Part shown: positions 15,717 through 56,644 of the stretch, piece by piece | Position numbering within the stretch: the stretch's first letter is position 1 | How the letters are laid out: every line of letters begins with the position of its first letter | NCBI GenBank assembly: GCA_942491855.1 | Contig: CALOCL010000003.1 | Location: 39,497-103,496, forward strand | Source: an uncultured Bacteroidales bacterium | GTDB taxonomy: Bacteria > Bacteroidota > Bacteroidia > Bacteroidales > GCA-2711565 | Length of the DNA: 64,000 nucleotides | Direction of reading: 5' to 3' | The notes under the pieces: model-generated | What the model saw: only the letters and a program-made list of their open reading frames with translations | Told to the model about the DNA's origin: nothing | Databases searched by the model: none | Made by a program: the position numbers and the translations under genes

Positions 15717-15801
15717 CATTTATCTTGTGCAAATAGCGGTCATAATTCTCATAAATTAGCTATTCTAATAAGGAGATAGTAATAGATTTTAAGAAATAAG
15801 T

Positions 15802-16163
15802 ATTCTTCTTCCATAAGATAATGCATCACTCATAAAATCAACAGACCATGTTTGATTGAGTGTAGTAGGTACAATTAGTGGTTCTTTTACTCTTGAAGGC
15901 AAGCGCCTTTTTCGTTTTCTACGGATATTTAACCCCATACTTCTATAAACCCTTAAGACACGCTTCCTGTTCCATTTTAAGCCTTCATTGCGTATGCGGT
16001 TGTAGTACTCATCAAAACCTCGTGTGGGGTGTTTCTCTGCCAGCTCATTAAGCCTGTCAATGACCGCTGTGTCATCCCGTTTGTTTTGATAGTACCACAT
16101 GGAGCGATGTAAATCAACCACCAAGCACGCCCTGTTTACACTTATTTGATATTCTTCTTGCAA
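15802..16163 (-). pseudogene. 3'-truncated IS3-family transposase OrfB
   Basis: ORF 15789..16163 matches the first 121 aa of the 277-aa OrfB at 27764..28597, then runs into unrelated flank. Confidence 0.9.
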
Positions 16164-16195
16164 ATAGCTTACCCGCTCTTTCTTTTCACAGGGCT

Positions 16196-16462
16196 TTAGA
16201 ACTTTTTTCCAAGTACGTCTTTTAACATCTCGTGGTCAAGACTAAGATCTGCATACATCCGTTTTAAACGCCTGTTCTCTTCTTCCAGTTCCTTGAGCTT
16301 TTTTAATTGATGGCTATCCATCCCGGAATACTTTTTCTTCCAATTATAGAATGTAGCTCTTGATATGCCATAGTCACGGCACAGATCTTTTACTTCTCTG
16401 CCAGCTTCATACTCCTTCAGTATCTTGATAATCTGGCTTTCACTAAATTTAATTCTTTTCAT
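16196..16462 (-). CDS. IS3-family transposase OrfA (copy in truncated element)
   Basis: 88 aa, identical to the product of 28630..28896. HTH region VKDLCRDYGISRATFYNWKKKY. Confidence 0.85.
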   Translation of the reverse strand: MKRIKFSESQIIKILKEYEAGREVKDLCRDYGISRATFYNWKKKYSGMDSHQLKKLKELEEENRRLKRMYADLSLDHEMLKDVLGKKF

Positions 16463-19057: not shown

Positions 19058-20731
19058 ATGAAAAAAACATTCACGATAAATATAAGCGGAATAATTTTTC
19101 ACATTGATGAGGATGCCTATTCAAAATTGAATGCTTATCTGAGTAGTATTAAATCACACTTCAACAATTTGGAAGGTAAGGAAGAAATCATTTCAGATAT
19201 TGAAAGTCGTATCGCTGAAATACTTCAATCAAAACTCAACGATGCCAAACAGGTAATTGTTTTGGCTGACATTAATGAGGTTATAGGAATAATGGGACAA
19301 CCCAGCGATTTTTCGGATGAGGAAGAAGAACCCGTAAAACAATCCTACAGTTATCAACAAACCGGATACAAACGATTGTATCGAGATCCTGAGAATAAAA
19401 TGATTGGCGGTGTAGCTAGTGGAATTGGGGCCTATTTGCATGTTGACCCACTATGGATTCGAATTTTATTTATCATTTCATTATTCACTACCCTGGGTGC
19501 TTTTATCTATATCATTTTATGGATCGTTGTTCCAGAAGCACTAACGACTTCCGAACGATTAGAAATGAAGGGTGAAAAGGTCAATATTTCGAATATCGAG
19601 AAATCGATTAAAGATGAATTTGATCACTTAAAAGGAAAGATAAATGACTTAACACAACAAGCCAGAGAGACCGTTAAAAAAAAAAGTGATATACCAAAAA
19701 CCATATTCGAGGACATCCTAGAATTATTTATAAATATTGCCAAAGCATTTTTTAAAGGCTTCGTGATCCTGCTCGGTATCGTGATCATGGTCACCGGACT
19801 TTCTCTTATTCTCGCTTTTGTAGCAGCATTTTTTGGACGAGGTTTATTCATATTTGATGGCCCCGAAATGGGAGTTTTACCCGCCTTCCAACTGATGGAT
19901 CTGTTCTTGAGCAGTTCAGGAAATATCGGATTATTAAAAGTTGGATTGTTCTTTCTGATAGGAATACCTTTAATTATGTTGATGTATGCAGGAATCCGCA
20001 TGATCTTTGGATTTGACAGAATCAGGCATTTGGGATCAACAGCCTTTGTACTTTGGCTCATCGGACTGGCATTAACCATTTCGTTCTCGTACAAAATGTT
20101 CCATAATTTCAGGTATGAAGTTGAGGATAAGGAAGAATACGCTATTGAACAACCAGACGGAAATGAAATCTTTTTATCTACCTCTGATTCTTATGATAAT
20201 TCCTACTACGCTTTCGATGATTTTATCGAACTGGATGATTTGGAAATTGCCATTGCCAAAGATGGATATTACATCAATCAAGCAAGATTGGAAATTCGAA
20301 AAAGCAATACCAATAGGGTTAGTTTGATTAAGCATTCAACGGCCAGAGGTAGGTCTGGTTTCGATGCCAAAGAAAGAGCTGAACAAACTGAATATCATTT
20401 TAAACAAGTTGGAAACCGTTTCATTTTCGATGATTTTTACAAAATTCCCAGAGATGTAATTTGGGCAGATCAGGAGATTTGGTTAGAATTGCGTGTGCCG
20501 GAAGGGATGAAAATTCAGATGGACGACAACATGTACCATTTGCTTAAAAATCGTTCAAGGTATTACTACTACAGCTGGTCTGATCGCGATTACATTATGA
20601 CTGAAGACGGACTCGAGAGATTAAATAAGGCAAAAGAAAAAAAGAAGGATTCTATTCAAAAAGGTTATTCAGGATTAAACAGTATTTCAAATAATTTCAT
20701 TGGATGGTCATTTAATTTCTTTCTCAAGTAA
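19058..20731 (+). CDS. PspC domain-containing membrane protein
   Basis: 557 aa. PspC motif MIGGVASGIGAYLHVDPLWIRILFII followed by several TM segments, directly downstream of PadR. Confidence 0.85.
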   Translation: MKKTFTINISGIIFHIDEDAYSKLNAYLSSIKSHFNNLEGKEEIISDIESRIAEILQSKLNDAKQVIVLADINEVIGIMGQPSDFSDEEEEPVKQSYSYQQTGYKRLYRDPENKMIGGVASGIGAYLHVDPLWIRILFIISLFTTLGAFIYIILWIVVPEALTTSERLEMKGEKVNISNIEKSIKDEFDHLKGKINDLTQQARETVKKKSDIPKTIFEDILELFINIAKAFFKGFVILLGIVIMVTGLSLILAFVAAFFGRGLFIFDGPEMGVLPAFQLMDLFLSSSGNIGLLKVGLFFLIGIPLIMLMYAGIRMIFGFDRIRHLGSTAFVLWLIGLALTISFSYKMFHNFRYEVEDKEEYAIEQPDGNEIFLSTSDSYDNSYYAFDDFIELDDLEIAIAKDGYYINQARLEIRKSNTNRVSLIKHSTARGRSGFDAKERAEQTEYHFKQVGNRFIFDDFYKIPRDVIWADQEIWLELRVPEGMKIQMDDNMYHLLKNRSRYYYYSWSDRDYIMTEDGLERLNKAKEKKKDSIQKGYSGLNSISNNFIGWSFNFFLK

Positions 20732-27763: not shown

Positions 27764-28597
27764 CTAATATAGACATTTCTCGGTTATTTTATTGTTTTTT
27801 CTCAGGAAGTTAACTTCCTGAGAAAAAGTTTCTGCATACTTTTTCGGACTCATCTTATTAAGCGAACTATGTGGATGATAGTTGTTATAGTCCTCCATCC
27901 ATTGTTCAATAAGTATTTTAAGTTGGCTAATGTTATCAAAAAGATAGGCATCTAGTATATCTTCCCTAAACAGTCTGTTGAATCGTTCAATGTAAGCATT
28001 TTGAACTGGTTTTCCCGGTTGGATATACTTAATCTCGATTCCCTGGAACTCGCACCAGTTAGTAAATACCCTGGATATAAATTCAGGACCATTATCAACA
28101 CGGATACTTTTAGGCTTCCCTCTGAAAAATATTACTTCTTTCATGACACGGATCAGTTGTTCTGCTGGGAATGAAAAGCCTGGTTCTACGGCAAGGGCTT
28201 CCCGGTTATAATCATCAATAATATTCAAAATACGGATTCTTCTTCCATAAGATAATGCATCACTCATAAAATCAACAGACCATGTTTGATTGAGTGTAGT
28301 AGGTACAATTAGTGGTTCTTTTACTCTTGAAGGCAAGCGCCTTTTTCGTTTTCTACGGATATTTAACCCCATACTTCTATAAACCCTTAAGACACGCTTC
28401 CTGTTCCATTTTAAGCCTTCATTGCGTATGCGGTTGTAGTACTCATCAAAACCTCGTGTGGGGTGTTTCTCTGCCAGCTCATTAAGCCTGTCAATGACCG
28501 CTGTGTCATCCCGTTTGTTTTGATAGTACCACATGGAGCGATGTAAATCAACCACCAAGCACGCCCTGTTTACACTTATTTGATATTCTTCTTGCAA
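27764..28597 (-). CDS. IS3-family transposase OrfB (DDE/rve)
   Basis: 277 aa with WSVDFMSD (D), RVDNGPEF (D) and NAYIERFNRLFRED (E). The annotated start is TTG, so expression as an OrfAB fusion is expected. Confidence 0.9.
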   Translation of the reverse strand: MQEEYQISVNRACLVVDLHRSMWYYQNKRDDTAVIDRLNELAEKHPTRGFDEYYNRIRNEGLKWNRKRVLRVYRSMGLNIRRKRKRRLPSRVKEPLIVPTTLNQTWSVDFMSDALSYGRRIRILNIIDDYNREALAVEPGFSFPAEQLIRVMKEVIFFRGKPKSIRVDNGPEFISRVFTNWCEFQGIEIKYIQPGKPVQNAYIERFNRLFREDILDAYLFDNISQLKILIEQWMEDYNNYHPHSSLNKMSPKKYAETFSQEVNFLRKNNKITEKCLY

Positions 28598-28629
28598 ATA
28601 GCTTACCCGCTCTTTCTTTTCACAGGGCT

Positions 28630-28896
28630 TTAGAACTTTTTTCCAAGTACGTCTTTTAACATCTCGTGGTCAAGACTAAGATCTGCATACATCCGTTTTA
28701 AACGCCTGTTCTCTTCTTCCAGTTCCTTGAGCTTTTTTAATTGATGGCTATCCATCCCGGAATACTTTTTCTTCCAATTATAGAATGTAGCTCTTGATAT
28801 GCCATAGTCACGGCACAGATCTTTTACTTCTCTGCCAGCTTCATACTCCTTCAGTATCTTGATAATCTGGCTTTCACTAAATTTAATTCTTTTCAT
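28630..28896 (-). CDS. IS3-family transposase OrfA (HTH)
   Basis: 88 aa: MKRIKFSESQIIKILKEYEAGREVKDLCRDYGISRATFYNWKKKY plus the coiled-coil LKELEEENRRLKRMYADL. Confidence 0.9.
   Translation of the reverse strand: MKRIKFSESQIIKILKEYEAGREVKDLCRDYGISRATFYNWKKKYSGMDSHQLKKLKELEEENRRLKRMYADLSLDHEMLKDVLGKKF
28636..28642 (-). promoter_or_regulatory. Programmed -1 frameshift heptamer A-AAA-AAG
   Basis: Minus-strand sequence GGA AAA AAG TTC TAA at the end of orfA. The -1 frame reads GKKVLKPCEKKERVSYLQEEYQIS into orfB. Confidence 0.8.
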
Positions 28897-31237: not shown

Positions 31238-32039
31238 ATGAAAAATAATAACAAACACATTTTTGCTTTTTTATCAATCACAATAATTATTAGTGCAATC
31301 TTAAATTATTTCATTATAAAAAGTGGGGGTTTAAAAAGCGCAGGGGAAATACTGATAATATCTATCATGTGGACGCCAGGTATAGCAGCATTATTAACAC
31401 TAATAATTTTCAAACAATCACTAAAAAAAATATTATGGAAAATCGGCAAGCCAAAATATCTACTTCAAGCTTATTATATTCCTTTGATTTATATTTCGGC
31501 AGCCTATCTACCATTGTGGTTATTTGGTTATTACGATTCGAATAAACAACTTACAATTCAGAGCATTTTGATTCCATTATTTGGGGCATTCATAAATATT
31601 ATTGCAACTCTTGGGGAGGAGATCGGATGGAGAGGATTTTTGTTTCCAGAACTCGAAAAAAAAAATGAACTTTACAAAAGCTGCTATATTAACTGGATTT
31701 ATATGGGCAATTTGGCATATCCCTGGATTATTAATGACTGATTATGGAAATAATGCTCCATGGTACACAGCATTGCCTATCTTTATTATAATTTTAACAG
31801 CCATAAGCTTACCCATTGCATATCTATGTAAAAAAGCAAATAGTATATGGCCTGCAGTATTATTTCATGCTGCACATAATTCATTTATCCAAGCGTTTTA
31901 CGATCCTTTTTCAATAAAAAATGAGGTAACTCAATTCCTAATAGGAGAAACTGGATTAGCCTTATTAATCACATCGTTGATATTACTATTTACCTATATA
32001 AAAAAGAGTAAATGCTTTTTAAAAATAACTCTTCAATAA
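31238..32039 (+). pseudogene. CPBP family intramembrane glutamic endopeptidase (CAAX/Abi type), frame broken in an A10 run
   Basis: ORFs 31238..31741 and 31602..32039 overlap across A10 (31656-31665). The EExxxR motif GEEIGWRG is in the first ORF; FIWAIWH and FHAAHN motifs are in the second. Confidence 0.8.
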
Positions 32040-32189: not shown

Positions 32190-33533
32190 TTAGTTTACAC
32201 CGAAAGTTAATACAAACAAAGCGCCTCTTCCGTTATTAGAATGCGCGGAAATACTTCCTCCCAGCATAATCATCACTTGTCGTGCTAAACTTAAACCAAT
32301 ACCTGAGCCTTCAGAGCGAGTAGTGAAAAATGGGATAAATATTTTATCTAACAACGCTTCATCAAACCCAATACCTGTATCTCGAACCTCAATCTGAATC
32401 CTATTGTTTAAGGTCAGGAAGGCTTTGACCGAGATTTTTTTCTCTTTACTTTCATTTAAAGCCCACACCGCGTTTTTAATTAAATTGATTAATACTTGTT
32501 CGATTTGTTCTCGGTCTGCATTTAACATCAAATTATTGGGCTCGATGCTACAGCTAAATTCGATTTTTGATTGTTCGAAAATTTCTTCAAATAAAATGGT
32601 GAGTTCATTCATCAAATCCTTTACCGGAACCTCAGTGATTTGAGGTAACGGAAGAATAGCAAGGTTTCTGTACTTTCTAACAAAATCCATCATCCCCTCA
32701 CCCCTGTTCTTAATCGTTGACAAACCTTTATCGAGTTTACTTTTCATTTTTGATTCGGAAACATCCTCTTTTTTAATCAAATCCGATAAGGAATTGGCCA
32801 AAGAAGTAATTGGTGACACTGAATTCATAATTTCATGAGTTAAAATCCGAATCATTTTCTGCCATGTTTCAGTTTCTTTTAAATCCAACTCAGGCTTAAT
32901 ATTTTGTAATGAAATCAGGTTTAATTCTTCGTCTGCAATTTTATACTTTGTAACACTTGCCGCCAATTGTAAGCTTTCTGTGGCTCTGTTTAACTCAAGT
33001 AACTGTTGCTGTCCGGGTAACAAATGTTTAAGAAATTTACTCAAATTTGGATGAAGATAATCGAGTGTGAAGATATTTTTCAATCGGGTTAAACCAAATA
33101 TTTTCAGGGCCTCTGAATTTATAAATCTTATTGAGCCTCTGGAGTCGAATGCAAAAATCCCAATTCCTACGTGCTCGATAACTGCTTTAAAATATTCGTC
33201 CTGTTCTTCACGTTTTAAAACAACTTCTTTAAAATGCCTTGACAGTTTATCCAGTTGCGCATTCAGTTCAGAAAACTCACCTGAGCCATTATCGGCTGTA
33301 AAAACCACATTGTAATCATCTGTTTTTACCGACTCGAAAAACAAAGAAAGTTTTCGATTAATTTTATTGATATAACGAAGCAGTAACGCAATTTGAGCAA
33401 CAGTGAGTAGGATTAAAAATAGTTGAACATAGAGCAGATTGGATTCATTAATTAATAGAAGAAAAGTAAAACCGGTGATAAATATTAGGATAATTCGGAA
33501 AACAACCCGGGCAAAAAAACGATTATAAACCAT
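32190..33533 (-). CDS. Sensor histidine kinase (NtrB-like partner of the sigma-54 activator)
   Basis: Two N-terminal TM segments and a PAS-like segment. H-box LTHEIMNSVSPI and ATPase boxes NLIKNAVWAL, DTGIGF, GSGIGLS. Overlaps the regulator gene by 11 nt. Confidence 0.9.
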   Translation of the reverse strand: MVYNRFFARVVFRIILIFITGFTFLLLINESNLLYVQLFLILLTVAQIALLLRYINKINRKLSLFFESVKTDDYNVVFTADNGSGEFSELNAQLDKLSRHFKEVVLKREEQDEYFKAVIEHVGIGIFAFDSRGSIRFINSEALKIFGLTRLKNIFTLDYLHPNLSKFLKHLLPGQQQLLELNRATESLQLAASVTKYKIADEELNLISLQNIKPELDLKETETWQKMIRILTHEIMNSVSPITSLANSLSDLIKKEDVSESKMKSKLDKGLSTIKNRGEGMMDFVRKYRNLAILPLPQITEVPVKDLMNELTILFEEIFEQSKIEFSCSIEPNNLMLNADREQIEQVLINLIKNAVWALNESKEKKISVKAFLTLNNRIQIEVRDTGIGFDEALLDKIFIPFFTTRSEGSGIGLSLARQVMIMLGGSISAHSNNGRGALFVLTFGVN

Positions 33534-34881
33534 ACTTTTTCATTTTATTGTAAATGGTTTGACGTGTGATACTCAATTCTCTCGCTGCCCTGATCATACT
33601 TCCGTTGTGTTTTTTAATAGCCGCTAAAATGGCCTGTTTTTCAATTTCTTCTAAACTTCCAGTGGGTAGCTGAGCAGATTGTTTGCCTTCAATATCTATA
33701 TCCTTATCAGTTAAAATGCCATCCTGATTCAGGATAACACATTTCTCAATTAAGTGTTCCAGTTCTCTGATATTACCAGGCCAATCATAGGTTTTTAATT
33801 TTTGAATAAAAGAAGGTGTCAGTTTCAATTTATCTCTTTTGTACTTAGCACTAAACTTCTCTAAAAAACTTTGAATTAAGGTTTCAATATCCTCAATTCG
33901 GTTTCTGAGTGCGGGAATTTCGATAGTGATGGTATTTATTCTGTAGAATAAATCTTCTCTGAATTCATTTTTACCAATTAACGCTTGTAAAGGCTGATTT
34001 GTGGCTGTAACCAGTCGAATATCTAAATTTTCAACCTGATTGGAACCCAATTGTGTAATTTTTTTTTCCTGTAACGCGGCAAGTAGTTTCATTTGTAAAT
34101 TCAGGGAGAGATTCCCTATTTCATCCAGAAACAAGGTTCCTCCCTTCGCAGTACTCATTCTACCCGGTTTATCTGTTTTAGCATCGGTAAATGCACCTTT
34201 CTTGTACCCGAACAATTCACTTTCAAACAAACTTTCGCTAAGCGATCCAAGATCGACTGTCACGAAGGCTTCATTTTTCCGATTTGATTGTAAGTGAAGT
34301 TCACGAGCTAGTAAGCTCTTACCTGTTCCGTTTTCGCCTGTTAATAGTACATTTGCATCTGTTGGGGCTACCTTTTTGATGGTCTCCAAAACCTTTTTAA
34401 AGGCAGGTGCTTTCCCAATTATTTCATCCTTTGAACGTGCAATTTCTTCCTCTAAATATTTTTTTTGCATTTTTAACTTAGAGGTGGTTTTTTGAGCCAG
34501 ACTAAGCTTGACTGCCGTCTTTAGTGTAGCAGTTAATTTATTATTATCCCAGGGTTTAAGTACGAAATCACTGGCACCTTCTTTCATTGCATTAACAGCA
34601 ACATGAACATCACCAAAGGCAGTAAACATGATTACTTCAATGCTTTCATCCAATTCTTTAATCTTTTTCAACCAAAATATTCCTTCATTGCCGGTGTTAA
34701 CCTTGGTCGAAAAATTCATATCCAAAAGTATTACATCAGGATGTTTTGATTGGATGACATTGGGTAATAGATTAGGATTATTGATAGTTAACAACTCATT
34801 GAACTCATCCTCCAACAAAACTTCTAATGCACTTAGTACATCTTTGTTATCATCTACAATTAGAACTACACCTGCGATCAT
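33523..34881 (-). CDS. Sigma-54-dependent Fis-family response regulator (NtrC-like)
   Basis: REC domain (LIVDDNKDV, DVILLDMNF), AAA+ domain GENGTGKS, GAFTDA (GAFTGA variant), ESELFGY, and a C-terminal HTH ARELSITRQTIYNKMKKYG. The first in-frame ATG is at 34881. Confidence 0.9.
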   Translation of the reverse strand: MIAGVVLIVDDNKDVLSALEVLLEDEFNELLTINNPNLLPNVIQSKHPDVILLDMNFSTKVNTGNEGIFWLKKIKELDESIEVIMFTAFGDVHVAVNAMKEGASDFVLKPWDNNKLTATLKTAVKLSLAQKTTSKLKMQKKYLEEEIARSKDEIIGKAPAFKKVLETIKKVAPTDANVLLTGENGTGKSLLARELHLQSNRKNEAFVTVDLGSLSESLFESELFGYKKGAFTDAKTDKPGRMSTAKGGTLFLDEIGNLSLNLQMKLLAALQEKKITQLGSNQVENLDIRLVTATNQPLQALIGKNEFREDLFYRINTITIEIPALRNRIEDIETLIQSFLEKFSAKYKRDKLKLTPSFIQKLKTYDWPGNIRELEHLIEKCVILNQDGILTDKDIDIEGKQSAQLPTGSLEEIEKQAILAAIKKHNGSMIRAARELSITRQTIYNKMKKYGL

Positions 34882-34925
34882 ATGATATGCAATTACATCC
34901 AAATGTAAATAAAATTGACAAACAA

Positions 34926-34944
34926 CTGTAAAATATTTTTACAG
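34926..34944. promoter_or_regulatory. Perfect palindrome CTGTAAAA-tat-TTTTACAG, candidate activator binding site (UAS)
   Basis: 8-bp arms, 65-83 nt upstream of the -24 element. A weaker TGTAAA-N5-TTGACA lies at 34907-34923. Confidence 0.35.
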
Positions 34945-35008
34945 TACTGAATAAAAAAAGAAGAGTAAAACTTGCTTTACAATCTAATATTCAGTGAATA
35001 GCAGATGA

Positions 35009-35024
35009 TGGCACATCATTTGAC
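35009..35024 (+). promoter_or_regulatory. Sigma-54-type -24/-12 promoter TGGCAC-N5-TTGAC
   Basis: TGGCACATCATTTGAC matches the TGGCAC-N5-TTGC consensus except for C to A at -12. It lies 31 nt upstream of ATG 35056, in the spacer shared with the divergent NtrC-like gene. Confidence 0.6.
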
Positions 35025-35055
35025 TATGGTTTAGTTCATTATTAAACCAAAAGTG

Positions 35056-37479
35056 ATGATCAAAAACTATTTTAAAACTGCTTTAAGAAACATTGTGAGA
35101 AATAAACTATTCACATTTCTAAACATTTTAGGCCTTTCATTAGGTCTCGCAACCGCTATCCTTATTTTATTTTGGGTTCAGGATGAACTGAGTTATGATC
35201 GATACCACAATAACTCAGAGAATATTTATAGGGTGACCGGGGACTTTGTTTTGAGTGGAAACAGAACACATACTGCAGTGGCTTCCCCTCCAATGGCTAT
35301 GACAATGATACAGGATTACCCAGAAGTAATGAATGCCTGTCGACTCAGACAAGTTGGTTCAAGAATATTAGGTGTTGGTAATGTCAGATATAAGGTGGAT
35401 GAAGTAACCTATGCCGATTCTACCTTTTTTGAGCTCTTCAATATACCTGTACTCGAAGGCGATAAAAATAACTTGCTCAACCAACCCAACCTGATTGTAT
35501 TAAGCAGAGAGACGTCAGAACGATTTTATGGGGATAAAAACGCCGTTGGAGAATTAATTAAGGTCGGTTCTAGAACATATATGGTTTCCGGAATTTACGA
35601 TAACATCCCCGAGAATACACATTTTCATTTCGATATTCTATTCTCGATGCCAAGTTTAGAAGATAGCTTCAGTCAAATGTGGCTTAACAATAATTACCAC
35701 ACATATATCGAGGTTCATCCAACGACAGATATCGAGAAGTTAGAAGATCAGATGCAGGAAATGGTTGTTAGATATTTGGGGCCAGATATTGAAAGATTTG
35801 TTGGAAAAACACTGGATGAATTTATAGGTGACGGTTCAGCAGCTTATCATTTACAAAAGCTAACGGATATTCACTTAAAGTCAGACTTAATAGCTGAACT
35901 TGAAGTAAACAGCGATATCAGTAATGTTTATATTTTTTCATTCATCGCACTATTCATTTTGATTATTGCCTGCATTAACTTTATGAATATGGCGACAGCC
36001 CGTTCAGAAGGGCGTAGCAAAGAGGTTGGGATTAGAAAAGTTGCCGGTGCAATCCGTGGTCAAATTATCTTTCAGTACCTTTTAGAATCATTTGTTATTA
36101 CCTGTATATCCTATTTTCTAGCCATGATATTGGTTGAGGTCTATTTACCAAGTTTTAATGCACTTTCTGACAAATCAATAAACATTCAGTATTTTGAACC
36201 ACAAACCTTATCGGTTTTACTGTTAATTATTTTATTCACTAGTCTATTGGCTGGTAGTTACCCCTCATTTTACCTTTCCTCTTTCCAACCTATTGTAAGT
36301 TTAAAAGGTGGCATTAAATCAGGTAAATCAAGTGGCAGATTAAGAAATATTTTGGTTGTCGTTCAATTTTTTACGACCATCATCCTTATCAGCAGTAGTA
36401 TTTTTGTTTACAAGCAATTAGGTTTTATTCTTACAAAGAAACTTGGGTTCGAAAAAGAACAGTTGTTATGCCTTCACAATATGAATGCGCTTGGTGATAA
36501 GTCTGAACTTTTAAAACAAGAGTTATTAAACTACCCGGAAATCATCAATGGAACAATATCCTCTTTTTTACCCGTACCTTCCAGCTCAAACAACTCAGTG
36601 GTTTTCCCTGATGGAGATCAAACCAAGTTAGTTACTTTTTACCAATGGGTTGTTGATGAAGATTATGTTGAAACCTTTCAGATGAAATTGGTTGAAGGAA
36701 GAAATTTATCGAATGAATATGGGACAGACTCATTGTCGGTGGTGGTTAACCAGGCAGCTCTTAAACAATTTGGTTGGGAGACCGCTAAAGGTCATTTTAT
36801 ACAACTATATCTGGACGATGATGGCAATACTGCAGATTATAAGGTTGTAGGTGTACTTGAAGACTTCCATTTTGAATCACTTAAAGATCCGATAAATCCA
36901 ATGCTAATGAGCCTTGGCAACCTAATGGGGTTGAGTAATACTGGCTTTTATTTGACCTTAAGATATGATGCTCAAAACACTGAAAAAGTCATCCGTTTAT
37001 TAGAAGATAAGTGGGCTGAGTTTGTACCCAATTATCCATTTGAATACTCGTTTATTAGCGACCGTTTTAACAGCATGTATGATCAGGAGAATCGAATGGG
37101 TGAAATTATGAAGATTTTTACCATACTGGCAATTATAATCGCTTCACTGGGTTTATTTGGGCTAACTGCTTTCATTGCTGAGAAGAGAACCAAAGAGATT
37201 GGTATCCGAAAAGTGAATGGCGCAAGTTTTATGAATATATTCATGCTCTTTACAAAAGACATTGCCAAACTTATAATCATAGCATTTATTCTCGCAGTAC
37301 CTTTAACCTGGTACGTCATGGACAATTGGCTAAACAACTTTACCTATCGTATTCAAATAAATTGGATCGTATTTATTGGTGCTGGTATCATGGCATTCAT
37401 ATTAGCCATCATTACCATTTCTTATCAGGCGATTAAAGCTTCTTCACAAAATCCGGTAGATTCATTGAAATACGAATAA
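35056..37479 (+). CDS. FtsX/MacB-like ABC transporter permease (no adjacent ATPase)
   Basis: ~807 aa with the same architecture as 12619..14952. Loops EVGIRKVAGAIRGQI and EIGIRKVNGASFMNI. Confidence 0.9.
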   Translation: MIKNYFKTALRNIVRNKLFTFLNILGLSLGLATAILILFWVQDELSYDRYHNNSENIYRVTGDFVLSGNRTHTAVASPPMAMTMIQDYPEVMNACRLRQVGSRILGVGNVRYKVDEVTYADSTFFELFNIPVLEGDKNNLLNQPNLIVLSRETSERFYGDKNAVGELIKVGSRTYMVSGIYDNIPENTHFHFDILFSMPSLEDSFSQMWLNNNYHTYIEVHPTTDIEKLEDQMQEMVVRYLGPDIERFVGKTLDEFIGDGSAAYHLQKLTDIHLKSDLIAELEVNSDISNVYIFSFIALFILIIACINFMNMATARSEGRSKEVGIRKVAGAIRGQIIFQYLLESFVITCISYFLAMILVEVYLPSFNALSDKSINIQYFEPQTLSVLLLIILFTSLLAGSYPSFYLSSFQPIVSLKGGIKSGKSSGRLRNILVVVQFFTTIILISSSIFVYKQLGFILTKKLGFEKEQLLCLHNMNALGDKSELLKQELLNYPEIINGTISSFLPVPSSSNNSVVFPDGDQTKLVTFYQWVVDEDYVETFQMKLVEGRNLSNEYGTDSLSVVVNQAALKQFGWETAKGHFIQLYLDDDGNTADYKVVGVLEDFHFESLKDPINPMLMSLGNLMGLSNTGFYLTLRYDAQNTEKVIRLLEDKWAEFVPNYPFEYSFISDRFNSMYDQENRMGEIMKIFTILAIIIASLGLFGLTAFIAEKRTKEIGIRKVNGASFMNIFMLFTKDIAKLIIIAFILAVPLTWYVMDNWLNNFTYRIQINWIVFIGAGIMAFILAIITISYQAIKASSQNPVDSLKYE

Positions 37480-37493
37480 TTAAATCTCCAGTA

Positions 37494-39893
37494 ATGATCA
37501 TAAATTACCTAAAAACAGCATTAAGAAACATTGCAAGAAATAAATTATTTACATTTTTAAATATTTTAGGGCTCTCACTAGGTCTGGCGACAGCTATCCT
37601 TATTCTATTTTGGGTACAGGATGAATTGAGTTACGATAAGTATAACAAAAACGCAAAAAACATTTATCGAATCACCAGTGATTATCAATTACCAGGAGAA
37701 AAATTTAAAGGGACTACAACATGTCCGCCAATGGCAGGAACATTAATTAATGATTACCCTGAAATACTAAATGCATGCAGATTCAACAGAAACATTGGTG
37801 GAAATTTAAGCGTTGGAGATAAGAAATTTAGCATTTCTAATCTTGCCTACGTCGATTCAACATTCTTTGATTTGTTCAGTGTTGCTCTATTAAAAGGAGA
37901 TAAAAAAAACCTTTTAAACCATCCAAACTATCTGGTATTGAGCGAAACAACTGCAAAACAACTATTTGGAGAAAAGGATCCCATCGGAAAATTAGTCACA
38001 GTGGGAAATGAATCTTTTTTGGTCAAAGGTATTTATGCTGATATTCCGGAAAATTCTCATTTCCATTTCAATATTTTGTTTTCAATCTCAAGCTTGAAAG
38101 CTAGTTTGAGTCCGGTTTGGTTGGACAATAATTATTACACTTATATTCTTTTGTATCCTGAAGCGGATCCTGAAAAGCTAGAACAACAAGTACATGAAAC
38201 GGTCATGAAACATATTGGTCCGGCTCTTGAAAATGCAACCGGACAAACGATGGATAAATTAATTGGAGATGGTTCCATTTCATTTGAGCTTCAAAAGTTA
38301 ACCGACATTCATTTACATTCCCATTTGATGGGAGAACTAGATGTAAATGGGAATCTTTCAAATGTTTATATCTTTTCTTTTATCGCTCTTTTTATTCTGA
38401 TTATAGCTTGTATCAATTTCATGAATATGTCTACAGCTCGATCCGAAAGTCGAAGCAAAGAAGTTGGTATTCGCAAAGTTTCAGGCGCAGCAAGAGGTCA
38501 AATTATTTTTCAATTTCTACTCGAATCATTCATTATTACGTTGCTATCCTACTTTTTCGCAATGATTTTAATTGAGATTTATCTACCCAGCTTCAATACG
38601 CTCTCAGGAAAAAACATTAACATCAACTATTTCGAGCCTTTTACTCTTTTCATCCTCTTCGGCATAATTATTTCTACCAGTTTCATATCAGGGAGCTACC
38701 CTGCATTCTACCTATCTTCATTTCAACCTATCGAAACTATGAAAGGAGCTTTAAAGGGCGGCAAATCGAGCGGAAGACTCAGAAATGTATTAGTTATTAT
38801 TCAATTTTTCACAACAATTATTCTAATCAGTAGTAGCATTTTTGTATACAATCAATTAAAATTTATTCAAACAAAAGAACTGGGATTTGACAAGGAGCAA
38901 CTAATATGTATTGGTAATTTAAATGCCTTAGATGATAAAGCCAATAATTTTAAACAAGAACTACTAAACCATCCCGAAGTAATTAGTGCAACCATTTCTT
39001 CCTTCTTGCCGGTACCTTCCGCCGGGTATCATGACGCTGTTTATCCGGATGGTGATAAAAATAATATGGTGGGGTTGTATCAATGGTTTGTGGATGTGAA
39101 TTATATTGAAACCCTTAGGATGAAGATTAAAACGGGAAGAAACTTCTTAGAAGAATCCGGAACTGATTTGCAAGCGGTACTGATTAATGAGAAGGCACTA
39201 AAGCAATTTGGATGGGAAACATTTGAAGGACATTTTATTACCAGAAAATCAAGCCAAGAGGCAACTAAATACAAAGTTATTGGTGTGCTGGAAAATTTCC
39301 ATTTCGAATCCTTGAAAAAAACAATTTCACCAATGATTATGCAATTAGGAGAAGGTGGGTATTATTTAACAATGAGGTACAATGCCACCAACGCCCAAGA
39401 CATCATTCAATTATCGGAGAAAAAGTGGAAAGAATTTGCACCGAATGATCCATTTGAATATTCTTTTGTTGATGATCGCTTCAATAATATGTATTCTCAG
39501 GAACAACAAGTTGGTAAAATCATGAAAACATTCACCTTTCTGGCAATCATAGTTGCATCTCTTGGTTTGTTTGGATTGGCCGCATTTATTGCCGAAAAAA
39601 GAACCAAAGAAATTGGAATCAGAAAAGTGAACGGAGCCAGTTTGATAAATATTTTTATGTTATTCACTAAAGATATCACCATACTAATTCTAATTGCTTT
39701 TATTCTGGCCGTGCCATTAACATGGTACATCATGAATCAATGGTTAAATAATTTCACCTATCGGGTCGATATAAACTGGCTGGTATTTTTGAGCGCAGGA
39801 TTACTTTCTTTTGTGATTGCAATGCTAACTATTTCGTACCAAGCTTTCATGGCCTCTTCGCGAAATCCAATTGAATCCTTAAAATACGAGTAG
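37494..39893 (+). CDS. FtsX/MacB-like ABC transporter permease, tandem paralogue of 35056..37479
   Basis: 799 aa. The N-terminal 45 aa are nearly identical to the upstream paralogue (NYLKTALRNIARNKLFTFLNILGLSLGLATAILILFWVQDELSYD). The start is 14 nt after the upstream stop. Confidence 0.9.
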   Translation: MIINYLKTALRNIARNKLFTFLNILGLSLGLATAILILFWVQDELSYDKYNKNAKNIYRITSDYQLPGEKFKGTTTCPPMAGTLINDYPEILNACRFNRNIGGNLSVGDKKFSISNLAYVDSTFFDLFSVALLKGDKKNLLNHPNYLVLSETTAKQLFGEKDPIGKLVTVGNESFLVKGIYADIPENSHFHFNILFSISSLKASLSPVWLDNNYYTYILLYPEADPEKLEQQVHETVMKHIGPALENATGQTMDKLIGDGSISFELQKLTDIHLHSHLMGELDVNGNLSNVYIFSFIALFILIIACINFMNMSTARSESRSKEVGIRKVSGAARGQIIFQFLLESFIITLLSYFFAMILIEIYLPSFNTLSGKNININYFEPFTLFILFGIIISTSFISGSYPAFYLSSFQPIETMKGALKGGKSSGRLRNVLVIIQFFTTIILISSSIFVYNQLKFIQTKELGFDKEQLICIGNLNALDDKANNFKQELLNHPEVISATISSFLPVPSAGYHDAVYPDGDKNNMVGLYQWFVDVNYIETLRMKIKTGRNFLEESGTDLQAVLINEKALKQFGWETFEGHFITRKSSQEATKYKVIGVLENFHFESLKKTISPMIMQLGEGGYYLTMRYNATNAQDIIQLSEKKWKEFAPNDPFEYSFVDDRFNNMYSQEQQVGKIMKTFTFLAIIVASLGLFGLAAFIAEKRTKEIGIRKVNGASLINIFMLFTKDITILILIAFILAVPLTWYIMNQWLNNFTYRVDINWLVFLSAGLLSFVIAMLTISYQAFMASSRNPIESLKYE

Positions 39894-39918
39894 TTACCGG
39901 CAAATGTAAAATTCAATT

Positions 39919-39948
39919 AGACCTTGAGCATTAAACAGGGTCTTTTTT
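39919..39948 (+). terminator. Rho-independent terminator
   Basis: AGACCTTG-agcattaaa-CAGGGTCT followed by T6. Confidence 0.7.
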
Positions 39949-40044
39949 GTTTACATCTAGATTTATTCAATAAGAGCTTGCAAAACGCCCGATTATTATC
40001 GAACTTTGGTCGATATCTTAAAACAAACTTAAAACCTGATTGTC

Positions 40045-40641
40045 ATGAAAAGTAAACTTGTTAAAAGCACTTTAATCATTGTCGCAATGGTTCTTATTTC
40101 AACCCAGTTATGGGCACAAGAAAAACCTTTCCGTATTGGTGTGAAAGCTGGCTTTCCCAATGTTTTAAGCGGAAACATTGAATTCGTAACACCTCTAGCC
40201 AATGAGCGGTTAGCACTAATGATCGATTATTCAAAATTTGCATTTAGCGTAGAAGGTGTTGAACTTGACTATTCGTATTTTGAAGGAGGAATTAATTATT
40301 ATCTGCGTCGTGAAGGTCATGGACCGTATGTTTCGGTAAGTTATACTAATATGAGCCTGGATTTGTTTTATGATGATGTTGAGTCTGATGTTACCAACGG
40401 ATTAATTGGTAGCGCTTCAACGGATATTGGACTGAACACCTTAAGTATAAAACTCGGTGCAAAATGGGGTGGGTTATTTTATTTCAGGCCGGAAATTGGC
40501 TATATGTTTACGGCATTACCCAACACTGTTGAAATAGAAGTTGATTTTGTTGGAGCACCCACAGAAATCCATGTAGAAGAAGTACCTACTTCCATTGCCG
40601 GTGGACTCATTTTTAATATCGGTTTTGGTTTTTCATTTTAA
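40045..40641 (+). CDS. Small outer-membrane beta-barrel protein
   Basis: 198 aa with signal peptide (LWAQE), an alternating hydrophobic strand pattern and a terminal GFGFSF. Confidence 0.6.
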   Translation: MKSKLVKSTLIIVAMVLISTQLWAQEKPFRIGVKAGFPNVLSGNIEFVTPLANERLALMIDYSKFAFSVEGVELDYSYFEGGINYYLRREGHGPYVSVSYTNMSLDLFYDDVESDVTNGLIGSASTDIGLNTLSIKLGAKWGGLFYFRPEIGYMFTALPNTVEIEVDFVGAPTEIHVEEVPTSIAGGLIFNIGFGFSF

Positions 40642-40669
40642 TTTATAATACGCCTTAATTTTAATTGTC

Positions 40670-41185
40670 ATGAAACGCATTCTGATTATTTTCTCTATCA
40701 TCCTTTTACCTGTTTATTTAATAGCCCAGGTTCAAAATATTAAGAGTAAAAAGGAGATTCGTGCAGAAAAAAAAGCAAAAATAGAACAGTCGGTTAAATC
40801 TTTGCTGAAATCTAAGCATTTCACGTTTGTTGTTAGAACTGCCAATCCGATGGTCGGGCCGACGATTGCGCTTACATCTGACTATGATATTAAAATTACC
40901 AAAGATTCAACTTATAGCTTCCTGCCCTATTATGGAGAAGCATATCAGGTGAAATATGGGAATACAGATGGGGGCATAAAATTTGAAACAGTCATGTACA
41001 ATTATGAAATTGAGTTTAATGACAGAACCAGCTTTTATGAAATTAAATTTGAAGTGATCGACCCCATCGAAACCTTTAAGGTTAATTTAAACATTTCTTC
41101 ATCAGGCTACGGAAATCTTAAAATTATCAGTAATACACGTCAAGCCATCAGTTATGATGGAATTTTGGATATGCTACTTGAATAG
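40670..41185 (+). CDS. DUF4251-like exported protein
   Basis: 171 aa with signal peptide and an FLPYYGEAY motif. Size and pattern are as I recall for DUF4251. Confidence 0.5.
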   Translation: MKRILIIFSIILLPVYLIAQVQNIKSKKEIRAEKKAKIEQSVKSLLKSKHFTFVVRTANPMVGPTIALTSDYDIKITKDSTYSFLPYYGEAYQVKYGNTDGGIKFETVMYNYEIEFNDRTSFYEIKFEVIDPIETFKVNLNISSSGYGNLKIISNTRQAISYDGILDMLLE

Positions 41186-53166: not shown

Positions 53167-53958
53167 ATGTTCGATTTCCATAAAGACAAAGCCAGGTATT
53201 TTGATATGCAGTATCGCAATTCTAAGGAATACATAATTCCATTTGTTGAACCGTATCTTGATTTGAGCAAGAATCTTAATATTTTAGAAATCGGTTGTGC
53301 GGAGGCAGGTGTTCTTAAGGCTTTTCTAGAAACTGGACAACATTGTACTGGCATTGAACTGAATGCTGGAAGAGTTTTAGATGCGAAGACCTTTTTAAAA
53401 AGAGAAATCGAGTCAGGAAAGGCAGAAATTATCAACAAAAATGTTTTTGAGATTGATACGGAAGATTTTGAATTGAAATTCGATTTAGTCATTTTAAAGG
53501 ATGTAATTGAACACTTCCCAAATCAAGAGAAATTTATTCAAGAGCTAAGTAGATTTCTTAATCCTGATGGACATATATTTTTTGGTTTCCCTCCTTGGCA
53601 AATGCCTTTTGGCGGACACCAACAAATATGTAAAAATCGTTTTGCAAGTCTATTTCCGTACTACCACCTTTTTCCTAAATTTTTATATCGAATCGCACTA
53701 AAGATATTTGGAGAGAGAGAAGATACTATTAACGAACTTTTCGAAATAAAGGACTGTGGGATTTCAATAGAAAGATTTGAGAAAATTGTAAAATCCAAAG
53801 ATTTTCATGTTGTGAATAAAACTCATTTTTTAATCAATCCAATTTATAAATACAAGTTTAATTTAAAAATCAGAAAACAAATTAAATTGATAAGTGCCAT
53901 CCCCTATCTGAGGAACTTCTTTACCACAGCTGTTTACTACCTCATTAAAAAAAATTAA
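53167..53958 (+). CDS. Class I SAM-dependent methyltransferase
   Basis: Motif I ILEIGCAEAG, an acidic post-I residue (GIELN) and DLVILKDVIEHF. Confidence 0.8.
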   Translation: MFDFHKDKARYFDMQYRNSKEYIIPFVEPYLDLSKNLNILEIGCAEAGVLKAFLETGQHCTGIELNAGRVLDAKTFLKREIESGKAEIINKNVFEIDTEDFELKFDLVILKDVIEHFPNQEKFIQELSRFLNPDGHIFFGFPPWQMPFGGHQQICKNRFASLFPYYHLFPKFLYRIALKIFGEREDTINELFEIKDCGISIERFEKIVKSKDFHVVNKTHFLINPIYKYKFNLKIRKQIKLISAIPYLRNFFTTAVYYLIKKN

Positions 53959-54707
53959 AAGTTTAAAACATTTTTTAACGCTTTGTATCCATTAGCACTT
54001 ACTTTTAGTTTTGAAGCATCTTTAAGAATAGCAACATAACAATCTTTCTCATAGCGCTCAATTTTATCCAATTCATTCACGTTTAAAATAAATGAGCGGT
54101 GAATTCGAACAAACTGCTCGGGATTCAAATGGGTCTCAAAAAACTTCATTGTTTTCTCTTTCAAATAGGTCCTTCCTTCCGAATGAATTTTTACGTAATC
54201 ATCATCAGATTGCAAATAACTTATTTTCTCGACAGGTAAAACCTTAATATGATTGCCTGACCTAATTGCAATTCTGTTTAATTCTTCGATTGAATCATCA
54301 ATTGTTTCGATAATTTTATGATTGGATTGCGAAGTAATTTCTGCATCTTCAGATTGCGAAATTATCTTATCAATTGCCTGGGCAAATCGATCTTTCGAAT
54401 AAGGTTTAAGTAAATAATCAATGGCATTTTGCTCAAACGCCTTGATGGCAAACTGATCAAAAGCTGTTGAAAAAACGATAAAAGGCTTTGAATCGATTAA
54501 CTCAAGAATCTCAAATCCTGTTAACTTTGGCATTTGGATATCCAAAAAAACAACATCAGGTTTTAACTGGTTAATTAACTGTACCCCCTCCAAACCATTA
54601 CTTCCTTCACCAATTATTTCGAATGCATTATATTCTGATAAATACTCACGAACCAACGATCGGGCTGGTTCTTCATCATCAATAATTAAACATTTAAATG
54701 TTTTCAT
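53955..54707 (-). CDS. LytTR family response regulator
   Basis: REC domain (CLIIDDEEPAR, DVVFLDIQMP) plus a C-terminal LytTR domain (FVRIHRSFILNVNELDKIE). Confidence 0.9.
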   Translation of the reverse strand: MKTFKCLIIDDEEPARSLVREYLSEYNAFEIIGEGSNGLEGVQLINQLKPDVVFLDIQMPKLTGFEILELIDSKPFIVFSTAFDQFAIKAFEQNAIDYLLKPYSKDRFAQAIDKIISQSEDAEITSQSNHKIIETIDDSIEELNRIAIRSGNHIKVLPVEKISYLQSDDDYVKIHSEGRTYLKEKTMKFFETHLNPEQFVRIHRSFILNVNELDKIERYEKDCYVAILKDASKLKVSANGYKALKNVLNF

Positions 54708-55764
54708 TTTTAATTTTATATGGAATAAATAATTCTACTTTAAAAAAATTGTCAATTTTGTAAGTCTTTAGTAATTGATCATGTTTATAAATCAATCGTA
54801 AGCGATCCTTAATATTTTTCAACCCAATGCCTGCCCCCTTTCGTTGTATGGCATCTCCATCAAAATTATTGGTGATTGTAATTAAAAAATGATCTTCTTG
54901 CATTTTACATTCGGTTGTGATATGCACTGTTTCAGCACTTTCATAAACACCATGTTTGACTGCGTTCTCGTAAAGCGGCTGCAAAATCATAATGGGGATC
55001 ATTTGTTTTTCACAATCCATACTAAATTTAAAATCGAATTGAAGCTTGTCCCCAAAACGAACTTTTTCAATTTCAAGATATCGGGTGATATTCTCAATTT
55101 CCTTTCCGAACTCACTAAAACGCAGATTATCTTTGGAAACGGTATACCTTAAAAAATCGGAAAGTTTGATGATCATATCTCGGGCTTTCTCTCCATTAAC
55201 AACCGTAAGCGAACTAATTGAATTAAGACTGTTAAACAAGAAATGTGGATTTATCTGAGATTTTAATAAGTTCAACTCACCTTCTACAATGGTTTCTTTC
55301 AACTGGATTTCATTTTTGTGACGGGCCTGTAAATCACGATAGTAAATGATGAGGTAATAGATAAGGGCATTTATTGAGTAAAAGAATACGGCGCTAATCA
55401 CTCGCCAGGGAACCGATTGTTTCAGTAAAGATTGATATTCGACTTCCGAAACCAGCGACCTGGCAATGTACGAGCCCAAACTGATCCAAATGATATTGAT
55501 AATCGTCACGGAAGTGATGTGATTAAAAATGACACTATACAGATTTGAACTGGTTGGTTTTGAAAAACTCACAGCAAACCATAATGACAATCCAAAAAAA
55601 GCAAACAAAGTATTAAATACCAATGTATCAGTAAGAGCGACTTCTATACTTTGATTATAAAAGCCGAACAAAAAGAAAAAATGGATTCCCATGATAAGAA
55701 CCCAAATCATTACATATAAGATGAATGAACGTATCGATTTAAAAACTGGATGATCAATAATCAT
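54694..55764 (-). CDS. Sensor histidine kinase (LytS/His_kinase type)
   Basis: Multiple N-terminal TM segments, H-region QINPHFLFNSLNSISSL and an ATPase region GAGIGLKNIKDRL. Confidence 0.9.
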   Translation of the reverse strand: MIIDHPVFKSIRSFILYVMIWVLIMGIHFFFLFGFYNQSIEVALTDTLVFNTLFAFFGLSLWFAVSFSKPTSSNLYSVIFNHITSVTIINIIWISLGSYIARSLVSEVEYQSLLKQSVPWRVISAVFFYSINALIYYLIIYYRDLQARHKNEIQLKETIVEGELNLLKSQINPHFLFNSLNSISSLTVVNGEKARDMIIKLSDFLRYTVSKDNLRFSEFGKEIENITRYLEIEKVRFGDKLQFDFKFSMDCEKQMIPIMILQPLYENAVKHGVYESAETVHITTECKMQEDHFLITITNNFDGDAIQRKGAGIGLKNIKDRLRLIYKHDQLLKTYKIDNFFKVELFIPYKIKNENI

Positions 55765-55770
55765 AGCTGA

Positions 55771-56496
55771 TTAATAGCTTTTAATTTCACCTCCGCCAAA
55801 AATGCAGGTCCCTTTTATAATTAACATCTTTGAATCATCGGCTCCTTGTTTTATGATGGTTCGTTTATCGCTAAAGCCACCAAATATCGAAACCACATCG
55901 ATTCTTACATTCCAATCGGCCGGAACAACCATACCTACTCCACCGAATATGCAGTGAATTTCAAGAACATTCTCTCCTTCATTTAAAATGGCTTGAGTCA
56001 TATCTAGTTCTGAACCTCCAAAAATATTGTTCAGCTCTCCACCTTTGAAAACCTGATTCGCGATTCGTCTCTTAGATCCCCCGAACACATTAAACTCACT
56101 AATATAGCCGCTATCAAGTGGTCTCTCTCTGCGATTAACATTCCAATCCGATCTTCGACGCCCAAGAAAAATCAATGAGACACCAACACCTATAAGCAAT
56201 ACAGGCCAAAATAATTTAACGAAACTGAATGAAAATCGAAACACATCGGGTATGAGAAAGAATGCACCTATTCCAATTAAAATAATTCCTGTCGTTTTAT
56301 TTTCTCTGCTAACAAGATTGATCAATCCAATTGCGATTAATAACATTTCCCAAGAAAAGAATATCCGTCTGGTATGATATGGTAAGTATCCAAAATTAGA
56401 GGCCATTAACAGCGCTCCAATTACAACTACGATAATTCCAAAAGTAACTTTTTTCATACGCTTACTATCTGAGTAATTTTCCGTGAACTTTTCCAT
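55771..56496 (-). CDS. LiaF/DUF2154-like membrane protein (cell-wall stress module)
   Basis: Four TM segments followed by repeated FGG-containing beta-strand motifs (VFGGSKR, IFGGSEL, IFGGVGM, IFGGFSD, IFGGGEI). Lies upstream of the HK-LytTR pair. Confidence 0.7.
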   Translation of the reverse strand: MEKFTENYSDSKRMKKVTFGIIVVVIGALLMASNFGYLPYHTRRIFFSWEMLLIAIGLINLVSRENKTTGIILIGIGAFFLIPDVFRFSFSFVKLFWPVLLIGVGVSLIFLGRRRSDWNVNRRERPLDSGYISEFNVFGGSKRRIANQVFKGGELNNIFGGSELDMTQAILNEGENVLEIHCIFGGVGMVVPADWNVRIDVVSIFGGFSDKRTIIKQGADDSKMLIIKGTCIFGGGEIKSY

Positions 56497-56644
56497 TGAA
56501 TGAATTTTTAAAGTTAGTAATTTTAGATGAAGCAAAGATATATCGCAAGTACTTTTCTGAAAAGCATGAATCGGTAAATTGCCGAATAAGTACGGTGTAT
56601 GCTTTTTTTATATATTTACTTTAAAGATTTAAACCCACTTGACA

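Follow-up and report, generated by a model that had tools for sequence, protein, structure and literature searches.

A predicted sigma-54 control region between an NtrC-class two-component operon and tandem FtsX-type permease genes in an uncultured Bacteroidales bacterium

The internally duplicated permeases of the FtsX/MacB type belong to the largest paralogous transporter families of Bacteroidota and Acidobacteria, and almost nothing is known of what they transport or how they are regulated. Two such genes stand in tandem in a 64,000-nucleotide (nt) stretch of DNA from an uncultured Bacteroidales bacterium (contig CALOCL010000003.1, assembly GCA_942491855.1), the whole of which is called the window here. 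They face, across a spacer of 174 base pairs (bp; nt 34882-35055), a divergent operon for an NtrC-class response regulator and a histidine kinase. The question raised by this locus is whether the two-component pair controls the permeases and, if so, from what kind of promoter. The spacer is best explained as a divergent control region, and it is likely, judging from its sequence and that of its relatives, that the phosphorylated regulator, bound at two dyad-symmetric sites, activates a sigma-54 promoter of the two permease genes. The original prediction, made from the letters of the window, had proposed that the pair activates the FtsX permeases through sigma-54, and this proposal is now supported, on computational grounds, by footprinting of the spacer, by a layout that recurs across the phylum and by co-variation between the recognition helix of the regulator and the half-sites of the dyads.

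On its plus strand the spacer carries a sigma-54 type -24/-12 promoter, TGGCACATCATTTGAC (35009-35024), recognised by its motif, by its conservation in six orthologs and by its recurrence in the wider family. The first six bases, TGGCAC (35009-35014), place GG (35010-11) at -25/-24, and TGGCA is unchanged in all six orthologs. The -13/-12 doublet is GA, at the correct 10-bp spacing from GG, with G(-13) at 35022 and an A at -12 (35023) where the consensus has C. The element is in the right orientation and ends 31 nt before the permease ATG at 35056. In all of these respects (the match to TGGCAC-N5-TTGC, the GG-N10 spacing, the deviation at -12 and the distance to the ATG) the site is as originally described. 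What has changed is the standing of the deviation, which is not a one-off: TTGA is kept in all six orthologs, which makes it a feature of the clade rather than a sporadic mutation, and it is found again in L043, L065 and L054. The start codon was taken as ATG 35056 (M-I-K), where the orthologs begin, rather than the GTG 35053 given by the open reading frame (ORF) finder. From canonical sigma-54 geometry, transcription is predicted to start 12 nt past -12, at 35034-35036 (plus strand), and a start near 35035 would give a leader of about 21 nt, which fits the median leader lengths of 24-32 nt in Bacteroidetes (PMC9723704). Canonical sigma-54 promoters have been validated in Flavobacterium psychrophilum by a start-site map and promoter mutagenesis (PMC9723704), and the same paper gives the heat-shock genes groES, dnaK and grpE as dependent on sigma-54 in Bacteroidetes. 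A motif scan of the plus strand of the spacer found no TAnnTTTG box, the Bacteroidetes consensus for the sigma-A -7 element (PMC9723704), and this leaves the sigma-54 element as the sole recognisable promoter of the permeases. A scan of the region for -35/-10 pairs of the sigma-70 style, a search ill-suited to Bacteroidetes, gave no excess of sites over shuffled sequence.

Upstream of the promoter lie two 17-bp dyads of the form TGT-N11-ACA, both predicted to be binding sites of the activator: a distal dyad, TGTAAATAAAATTGACA (34904-34920), and a proximal dyad, TGTAAAATATTTTTACA (34927-34943). Their centres are 23 bp apart and, reckoned from the predicted start at 35035, fall near -123 and -100. 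Enhancers recognised by proteins of this class usually comprise two or more dyad-symmetric sites some 80-150 bp from the promoter, a pattern into which the two dyads fit. The perfect palindrome noticed earlier, CTGTAAAAtatTTTTACAG (34926-34944), does lie 65-83 nt 5' of the promoter, and the proximal dyad is its core; the description needs refining in that it is one of two tandem sites. TGT-N11-ACA occurs 12 times in the window, and the only two intergenic occurrences are this tandem pair. An A-tract or bend was also sought between enhancer and promoter; the stretch AATAAAAAAAG, at about 34950-34960, is not kept in the orthologs and no claim is made for it. On the minus strand, the distal dyad overlaps TACATTTG (34907-34900), found by motif scan as the sole TAnnTTTG box of the spacer. 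This putative sigma-A -7 box is invariant in the six orthologs and stands 18 nt 5' of the regulator ATG, and from its sequence and position it is likely to be the promoter of the regulator-kinase operon.

The regulator gene (33523-34881, minus strand) encodes a protein of 452 amino acids with the domains of an NtrC-class enhancer-binding response regulator, all above their Pfam cut-offs: Response_reg (1e-20), Sigma54_activat (1e-64) and HTH_8 (1e-14), together with AAA_lid_14. In the translation, D54 lies in LLDMNF, the Walker A motif reads GENGTGKS, the sigma-54 contact loop reads GAFTDA, and the Fis-type helix-turn-helix (HTH) is ITRQTIYNKMKKYGL. Pfam and the translation agree here with the AAA+ sigma-54 interaction domain that had been assigned to this protein from GENGTGKS and GAFTDA. 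The nearest NCBIfam models are the PEP-CTERM response regulator, AtoC, ZraR and NtrC, and all of them score below their equivalog cut-offs. The kinase gene (32190-33533, minus strand) overlaps the regulator gene by 11 nt and encodes 447 amino acids, with Pfam matches to PAS_8 and HATPase_c. The order of its parts is two N-terminal transmembrane helices joined by a loop of a few residues, then the PAS domain, an H-box (THEIMNS) and HATPase_c. By hydropathy, the topology of two helices and a short loop is shared by 55 of 61 kinase homologs, most commonly with a loop of 5 residues between cores of 19 residues, which means that the kinase lacks a periplasmic sensor domain.

For comparison, contigs taken at one genome per species, as well as metagenome contigs, were scanned with the regulator protein. 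This gave 160 loci (L001-L160), all of them from Bacteroidota or the related Ignavibacteria. Five (L001, L002, L003, L081 and L082) are orthologs, with regulators 63-76% identical to that of the window; L003 comes from the complete chromosome OY787449.1, which belongs to a close relative. A protein search showed that L001, L002, L003 and L082 share the divergent permease; L081 has a short flank in which the permease start is conserved. In the six-way alignment of the spacers (the window plus the five orthologs; mean column identity 69%), conservation of the control region is confined to three islands, CAAATGTA, TGTAAAATATTTTTACA and TGGCA[CT]A.C.TTTGA, with diverged sequence between them; the permease start codon is likewise conserved. 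CAAATGTA is invariant in the six orthologs, as are 17 of 17 positions of TGTAAAATATTTTTACA. The distal dyad keeps TGTAAA and TTGAC in four of the five orthologs and is degenerate in L082. The spacing from proximal dyad to promoter is 81-82 nt in four of the five, L082 again departing, through indels. The spacer of L001 is about 200 nt longer than the others, owing to an insert (L001 about 5800-6000) that is rich in GC, contains inverted repeats (gacgtcagtcgaaagactgacagc; cttgccgtcaggcaag) and looks like a small mobile or repeat element. It lies between the regulator gene and the dyads, and the control elements are intact.

The same alignment bears on a different explanation of the promoter region, in which the inverted repeat CAGATGATGGCACATCATTTG (35002-35022) would be a hairpin terminator or attenuator and not a promoter. 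A consensus terminator scan does list 35002-35022, with 9 pairs followed by a weak run of T. However, L002 and L003 keep TGGCACAGCATTTGA and lose the complementary upstream arm, and compensatory changes that would preserve the stem were sought in the orthologs and none was seen. No plus-strand gene ends upstream of the repeat, and its symmetry is partly intrinsic to TG-GCA-CA. The hairpin was rejected as the stem is not conserved, and the chance that it is the right explanation is very small.

The sigma-54 arrangement extends well beyond the orthologs. Regulators that are 45-52% identical to that of the window nearly always have a homologous kinase next to them, and a divergent FtsX-type permease faces the regulator in 51 of the 60 loci for which 4 kb or more of upstream sequence was available. 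In 10 of the 60 no other gene stands between regulator and permease, as in the window. Cultivable relatives that have this layout include Ohtaekwangia, Pontibacter, Dokdonia and Aequorivita. The usual divergent unit consists of an HlyD adaptor (about 416 amino acids), sometimes preceded by TolC, an ATP-binding cassette (ABC) ATPase (about 230 amino acids) and one to three permeases (about 800 amino acids each), so that the orphan-permease arrangement of the window is one architectural variant and most relatives face a full HlyD-ATPase-permease operon. Family spacers, from the regulator gene to the first divergent gene, were collected from 59 genome and 50 metagenome loci, to which the window adds one (110). 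TGGCAY occurs on the operon strand of 46 of the 59 genome spacers and on the opposite strand of one (shuffles: mean 3.0, maximum 7); for the 50 metagenome spacers the counts are 38 and 5 (shuffle mean 2.6). Altogether, 84 of the 109 relatives carry it on the transporter strand (85 of 110 with the window) versus 6 on the opposite strand, and the 16-mer most commonly ends 22-33 nt from the ATG. A crude test on the fetched loci found a TGGCAY of their own in only 5 of 50 FtsX-type genes with a non-coding upstream stretch, from which it appears that the promoter is tied to whichever gene comes first in the unit opposite the two-component system and not to permease genes generally.

Tandem TGT-N11-ACA dyads were found in 17 of 60 genome spacers and 18 of 50 metagenome spacers (35 of 110 including the window, 34 of 109 without it), and in none of 300 and 200 shuffles, respectively. 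The two centres are separated by 21-23 bp, and in 25 of 31 cases by 22 bp, which places both dyads on one face of the helix. The distance between GG and the proximal dyad takes one of two ranges, 61.5-63.5 bp in 26 loci (mostly Flavobacteriia) and 72.5-75.5 bp in five loci (the window included), a difference of about one helical turn. These distances help to decide what the dyads are for. They might chiefly form an operator at which the regulator, or another protein, represses the regulator-kinase operon, with no role as an enhancer of the permeases, and the position of the distal dyad, over the putative -7 box and 23 nt from the regulator ATG, would suit such a function. In Flavobacteriia, however, the dyads lie about 80 nt from the regulator ATG and still hold a rigid distance to GG, which shows that the sigma-54 promoter, and not the regulator gene, is the reference point of the constraint on spacing. 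That the dyads are chiefly an operator is considered distinctly unlikely. The overlap of the distal dyad with TACATTTG does suggest negative autoregulation, and a dual role of the dyads, as enhancer and operator, is likely; the two functions are compatible, as NtrC at glnA/glnL illustrates.

The best computational case for the dyads being the cognate sites of the neighbouring regulator comes from the regulator itself. Across the family the half-sites sort by the recognition helix of the C-terminal HTH, of which there are four classes. Regulators with TRQT[IL]YNKMK go with TGTAAA...TTTACA, a class that comprises the window, L001 and L003 and extends to L008 and L046, two loci with the same helix and half-site despite an overall regulator identity of only about 48-51%. 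SRTTLYFK is paired with TGTTAAG...CTTAACA, TR[TA]ALYRRL with TGTATC...CGAACA, and GRTTLYRK with GTTTCAC...GTGAAAC. The same pattern is relevant to the suggestion that the promoter is real and is activated by another enhancer-binding protein encoded elsewhere, the adjacent regulator being merely syntenic. In favour of this suggestion, a third permease gene of the window (starting at 12619) has a similar promoter-like site and no adjacent regulator. The co-variation of recognition helix and half-site argues against it, as does the synteny in 51 of 60 loci, and activation by a different protein appears very unlikely. No second enhancer-binding protein was found in the window.

Several observations weigh against sigma-54 activation of the permeases by the regulator. 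Judged against the window by itself, the promoter sequence is no significant match: TGGCAC-N5-TTGM has one exact match versus 0.26 expected, at least one match arises in 22 of 100 shuffles of the window, and with one mismatch allowed there are 9 matches versus 5.6 expected. A position weight matrix built from 39 promoter-like sites of distant relatives, when scanned over the window, left 35009 outside the top 20 matches and ranked chance matches in coding regions first; it was replaced by positional analysis because it held little information beyond TGGCAY. In all six orthologs GA takes the place of the near-invariant GC at -13/-12, the wider family has a degenerate -12 region, and 25 of the 110 family spacers have no TGGCAY. 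The contact loop of the regulator (residues ~240-245; ~34150-34170, minus strand) reads GAFTDA where the canonical sequence is GAFTGA, and rpoN was not found in the 64-kb window. As to the loop, 79 of 80 genome homologs have GAFTDA, as do 156 of the 161 loops counted across all loci, and unrelated enhancer-binding proteins in the same loci have GAFTGA or GSFTGA. It is a hallmark of the family that departs from a motif usually treated as invariant and, being conserved, is presumably functional.

As to the promoter, if TGGCAC-N5-TTGA were fortuitous, an ordinary sigma-A promoter would serve the permeases and the regulator would act elsewhere. The frequency of exact matches in shuffled sequence (one per 64 kb in about 22% of shuffles) and the departure from consensus at -12 are both compatible with this, but the motif is kept in six orthologs whose flanks have diverged, TGGCAY recurs in the spacers of relatives with a marked strand asymmetry and a consistent distance to the ATG, and the plus strand is without a TAnnTTTG box. 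Position points the same way inside the window: TGGCAY occurs 75 times on both strands, seven times between genes, and only twice (35009 and 12570) in the correct orientation within 60 nt 5' of a start codon, each time before an FtsX permease gene. Position and conservation together set the promoter above chance, and a fortuitous match is judged highly improbable.

The proposed sequence of events is as follows. Sigma-54 holoenzyme would sit on TGGCAC-N5-TTGA (35009-35024) as a closed complex unable to open by itself. The kinase would phosphorylate D54 of the regulator, which would then oligomerise on the two 17-bp dyads, on the same helical face about 100 and 123 bp upstream of the start. From there it would reach the holoenzyme by looping of the DNA and open the promoter by ATP hydrolysis, and transcription would run from near 35035 through both permease genes and possibly through the two genes beyond them (see below). 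The regulator-kinase operon would be read in the opposite direction from the sigma-A box TACATTTG, and bound regulator would probably damp its own synthesis through the distal dyad lying over that box. Because of the class of transporter and the topology of the kinase, the most plausible guess for the inducing signal is a membrane- or envelope-active compound or stress. A more specific idea would make the system a Bacteroidota counterpart of the flux-sensing Bce modules of Firmicutes, in which the kinase reads the activity or conformation of the FtsX-type permease and drives its synthesis via a tightly-off sigma-54 promoter, the GAFTDA loop and the TTGA at -12 being co-adapted. As the kinase has no extracellular sensor domain, the permease itself would be what is read. 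This idea is speculative and, in our estimate, unlikely.

The two target genes encode chains of 807 (permease 1, 35056-37479, plus strand) and 799 amino acids (permease 2, 37494-39893, plus strand), each with doubled MacB_PCD and FtsX domains in Pfam and an architecture like that of the Acidobacterial duplicated orphan permeases (ADOP). Permease 2 lies 14 nt downstream of permease 1 and is 64% identical to it, and the two genes are presumably co-transcribed. They form a tandem duplicate, since L001 and L003, the orthologs with long enough flanks, have a single copy. Among NCBIfam models the best match is ADOP (TIGR03434), at 255 and 241 bits against a cut-off of 622, followed by DarB at 162-179 bits against a cut-off of 700. 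Each chain has two FtsX stretches and no ABC ATPase gene adjoins them, as in ADOP; the permeases are ADOP-like in architecture and not members of the family. No ORF with the ABC ATPase signature (Walker A...LSGGQ) was found across the 64 kb, under a search in which the control loci L039 and L027 were positive, nor in any checked locus with a directly adjacent permease. Fifteen loci, among them the window and its five orthologs, were checked for an adaptor and an ATPase gene; neither was found in the window or in a dozen related loci.

The permease genes are followed by orf198 and a gene for a DUF4251 protein (40045-41185, plus strand), and L001 and L003 have the pair in the same place. With its signal peptide and C-terminal GFGFSF, orf198 may form a small barrel in the outer membrane. 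Between permease 2 and orf198, the 151-nt spacer (39894-40044) contains a block shared with L001 and L003 (CTTGCAAAA...TTATCGAaCTTTGgT), and the two genes may belong to the permease operon or may be transcribed from an internal sigma-A-like promoter in 39894-40044. On the other side of the locus, just past the 3' end of the kinase gene, two overlapping ORFs (31238-31741 and 31602-32039, plus strand) share the sequence of an Rce1-like CAAX protease, which may reflect a frameshift or a pseudogene (31238-32039).

The third ADOP-like FtsX permease of the window (12619-14952, plus strand) is 36% identical to permeases 1 and 2. A sigma-54-like sequence, TGGCATTAAGATTGAT (12570-12585, plus strand), with TTGA at -12, lies 34 nt before its ATG, and there is neither an adjacent regulator nor a TGT-N11-ACA dyad. 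Two small palindromes, ATGTACAT (12489-96) and GTAATAATTAC (12503-13), occur upstream of 12570, the latter about 63.5 bp from GG. Further 5' of this gene, the non-coding segment 11880-12251 is an 86%/75% identical copy of 2707-3074, which consists of the 3' end of an S15 peptidase gene (722-2941) and the spacer downstream of it. The segment adjoins a gene for a transposase with an integrase core (rve; 10559-11560), and the region is rearranged in appearance. Insertion elements are also seen elsewhere: an IS3-family element at 27764-28896 (minus strand; orfA 88 and orfB 277 amino acids) has a second, truncated copy at 15789-16462 (minus strand), the two sharing a 300-nt repeat of 99% identity (15794-16093 and 28228-28527). 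Other genes of the envelope-stress type in the window specify a PspC-domain protein and a LiaF-like protein beside a His_kinase/LytTR pair (19058-20731, plus strand; 53955-56535, minus strand), and there are several genes for beta-lactamase-fold proteins and peptidases as well as a MatE exporter.

How far the regulatory link is new was assessed from the literature. A scoring-matrix survey published in PLoS One in 2025 found COG0577/FtsX-like permeases to be enriched 3' of predicted sigma-54 promoters in Bacteroidia, gamma-Proteobacteria and Opitutia, and presented this as the first evidence of a link (PMC12316311). The survey reports enrichment only, and differs from the present analysis in having no cognate activator, upstream activating sites, locus architecture or experiment. 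Literature searches returned this computational survey and no experimentally characterised link between sigma-54 and FtsX or MacB. The link is not mentioned in the available part of Francke et al. 2011 (PMC3162934), nor was it met in term searches of the available text of Kazakov et al. 2015 (PMC4641369). The statement in the original prediction that no characterised example was known thus stands as far as experiments go, and has to be qualified in that the link had already been reported computationally. The link itself is not new, and an enhancer-binding protein adjoining its sigma-54 target is the rule and not a surprise; the circuit is mechanistically conventional and statistically anticipated. 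What is new is the family of activators, the enhancer of two dyads with its recognition code, the phasing of enhancer and promoter and the sensor-less kinase, along with two features that set the family apart from the canonical pattern, GAFTDA and a degenerate -12, which in this clade reads TTGA. The statistical link of 2025 is thereby moved from enrichment to a predicted mechanism. Some 190 related loci (158 that were fetched and have a paired kinase, together with relatives that were not kept) provide a testable model made up of GAFTDA-marked activators, a 17-bp dyad code, a fixed geometry and a sensor-less kinase. Such a model would help to find the inducing signals, to define regulons by their dyads and to ask how permeases without a nearby ATPase are powered.

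Among known systems, the closest in regulatory design are NtrB-NtrC/glnAp2, ZraSR and AtoSC of Enterobacteria. The window shares with them a regulator built of receiver, AAA+ and Fis-HTH domains, which carries D54 and lies in one operon with its kinase, and a tandem pair of 17-bp dyads placed about 100-125 bp 5' of a sigma-54 promoter of the GG-N10 type; the divergent target operon recalls zraP-zraSR. It differs in that the target is an FtsX/MacB-type permease, that the kinase has no periplasmic or nitrogen-sensing input, and that the contact loop is GAFTDA, the -12 region TTGA and the half-sites TGTAAA...TTTACA. Those of NtrC are TGCACC...GGTGCA.

BceRS-BceAB of Firmicutes resembles the locus in another way, with an FtsX-family permease beside a two-component system, a kinase of two helices with almost no extracellular loop, and the system inducing the transporter, as is predicted here. 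The Bce regulator is of the OmpR type and works with sigma-A, and BceB has 10 helices and one extracellular domain and is served by a dedicated ATPase, BceA. The window likewise combines an intramembrane-sensing type of kinase with an FtsX-type permease, whereas its regulator is of the NtrC type with sigma-54, in place of an OmpR regulator, and a doubled MacB_PCD-FtsX permease without an adjacent ATPase takes the place of BceB and its partner.

In the build of the permease, the nearest comparisons are ADOP and DarB, the darobactin exporter permease, with which the window proteins share two FtsX and two periplasmic domains per chain and, in the case of ADOP, the lack of an adjacent ATPase. The scores lie far below the curated cut-offs, and the lineage here is Bacteroidota. 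The usual partners of ADOP genes are PadR-type regulators, whereas the permeases of the window stand beside a sigma-54 two-component system. With MacAB-TolC, a type VII ABC system, they have in common the MacB_PCD and FtsX modules. The window permease differs from it in being an internally duplicated chain of 800 amino acids and not a fused ATPase-permease, and the ATPase and HlyD-family adaptor of a MacAB-TolC operon are absent from the window and from L001-L003. In most relatives, by contrast, the regulator faces a (TolC)-HlyD-ATPase-permease operon, and one control module thus serves both complete MacAB-like operons and permease genes that have no ATPase of their own.

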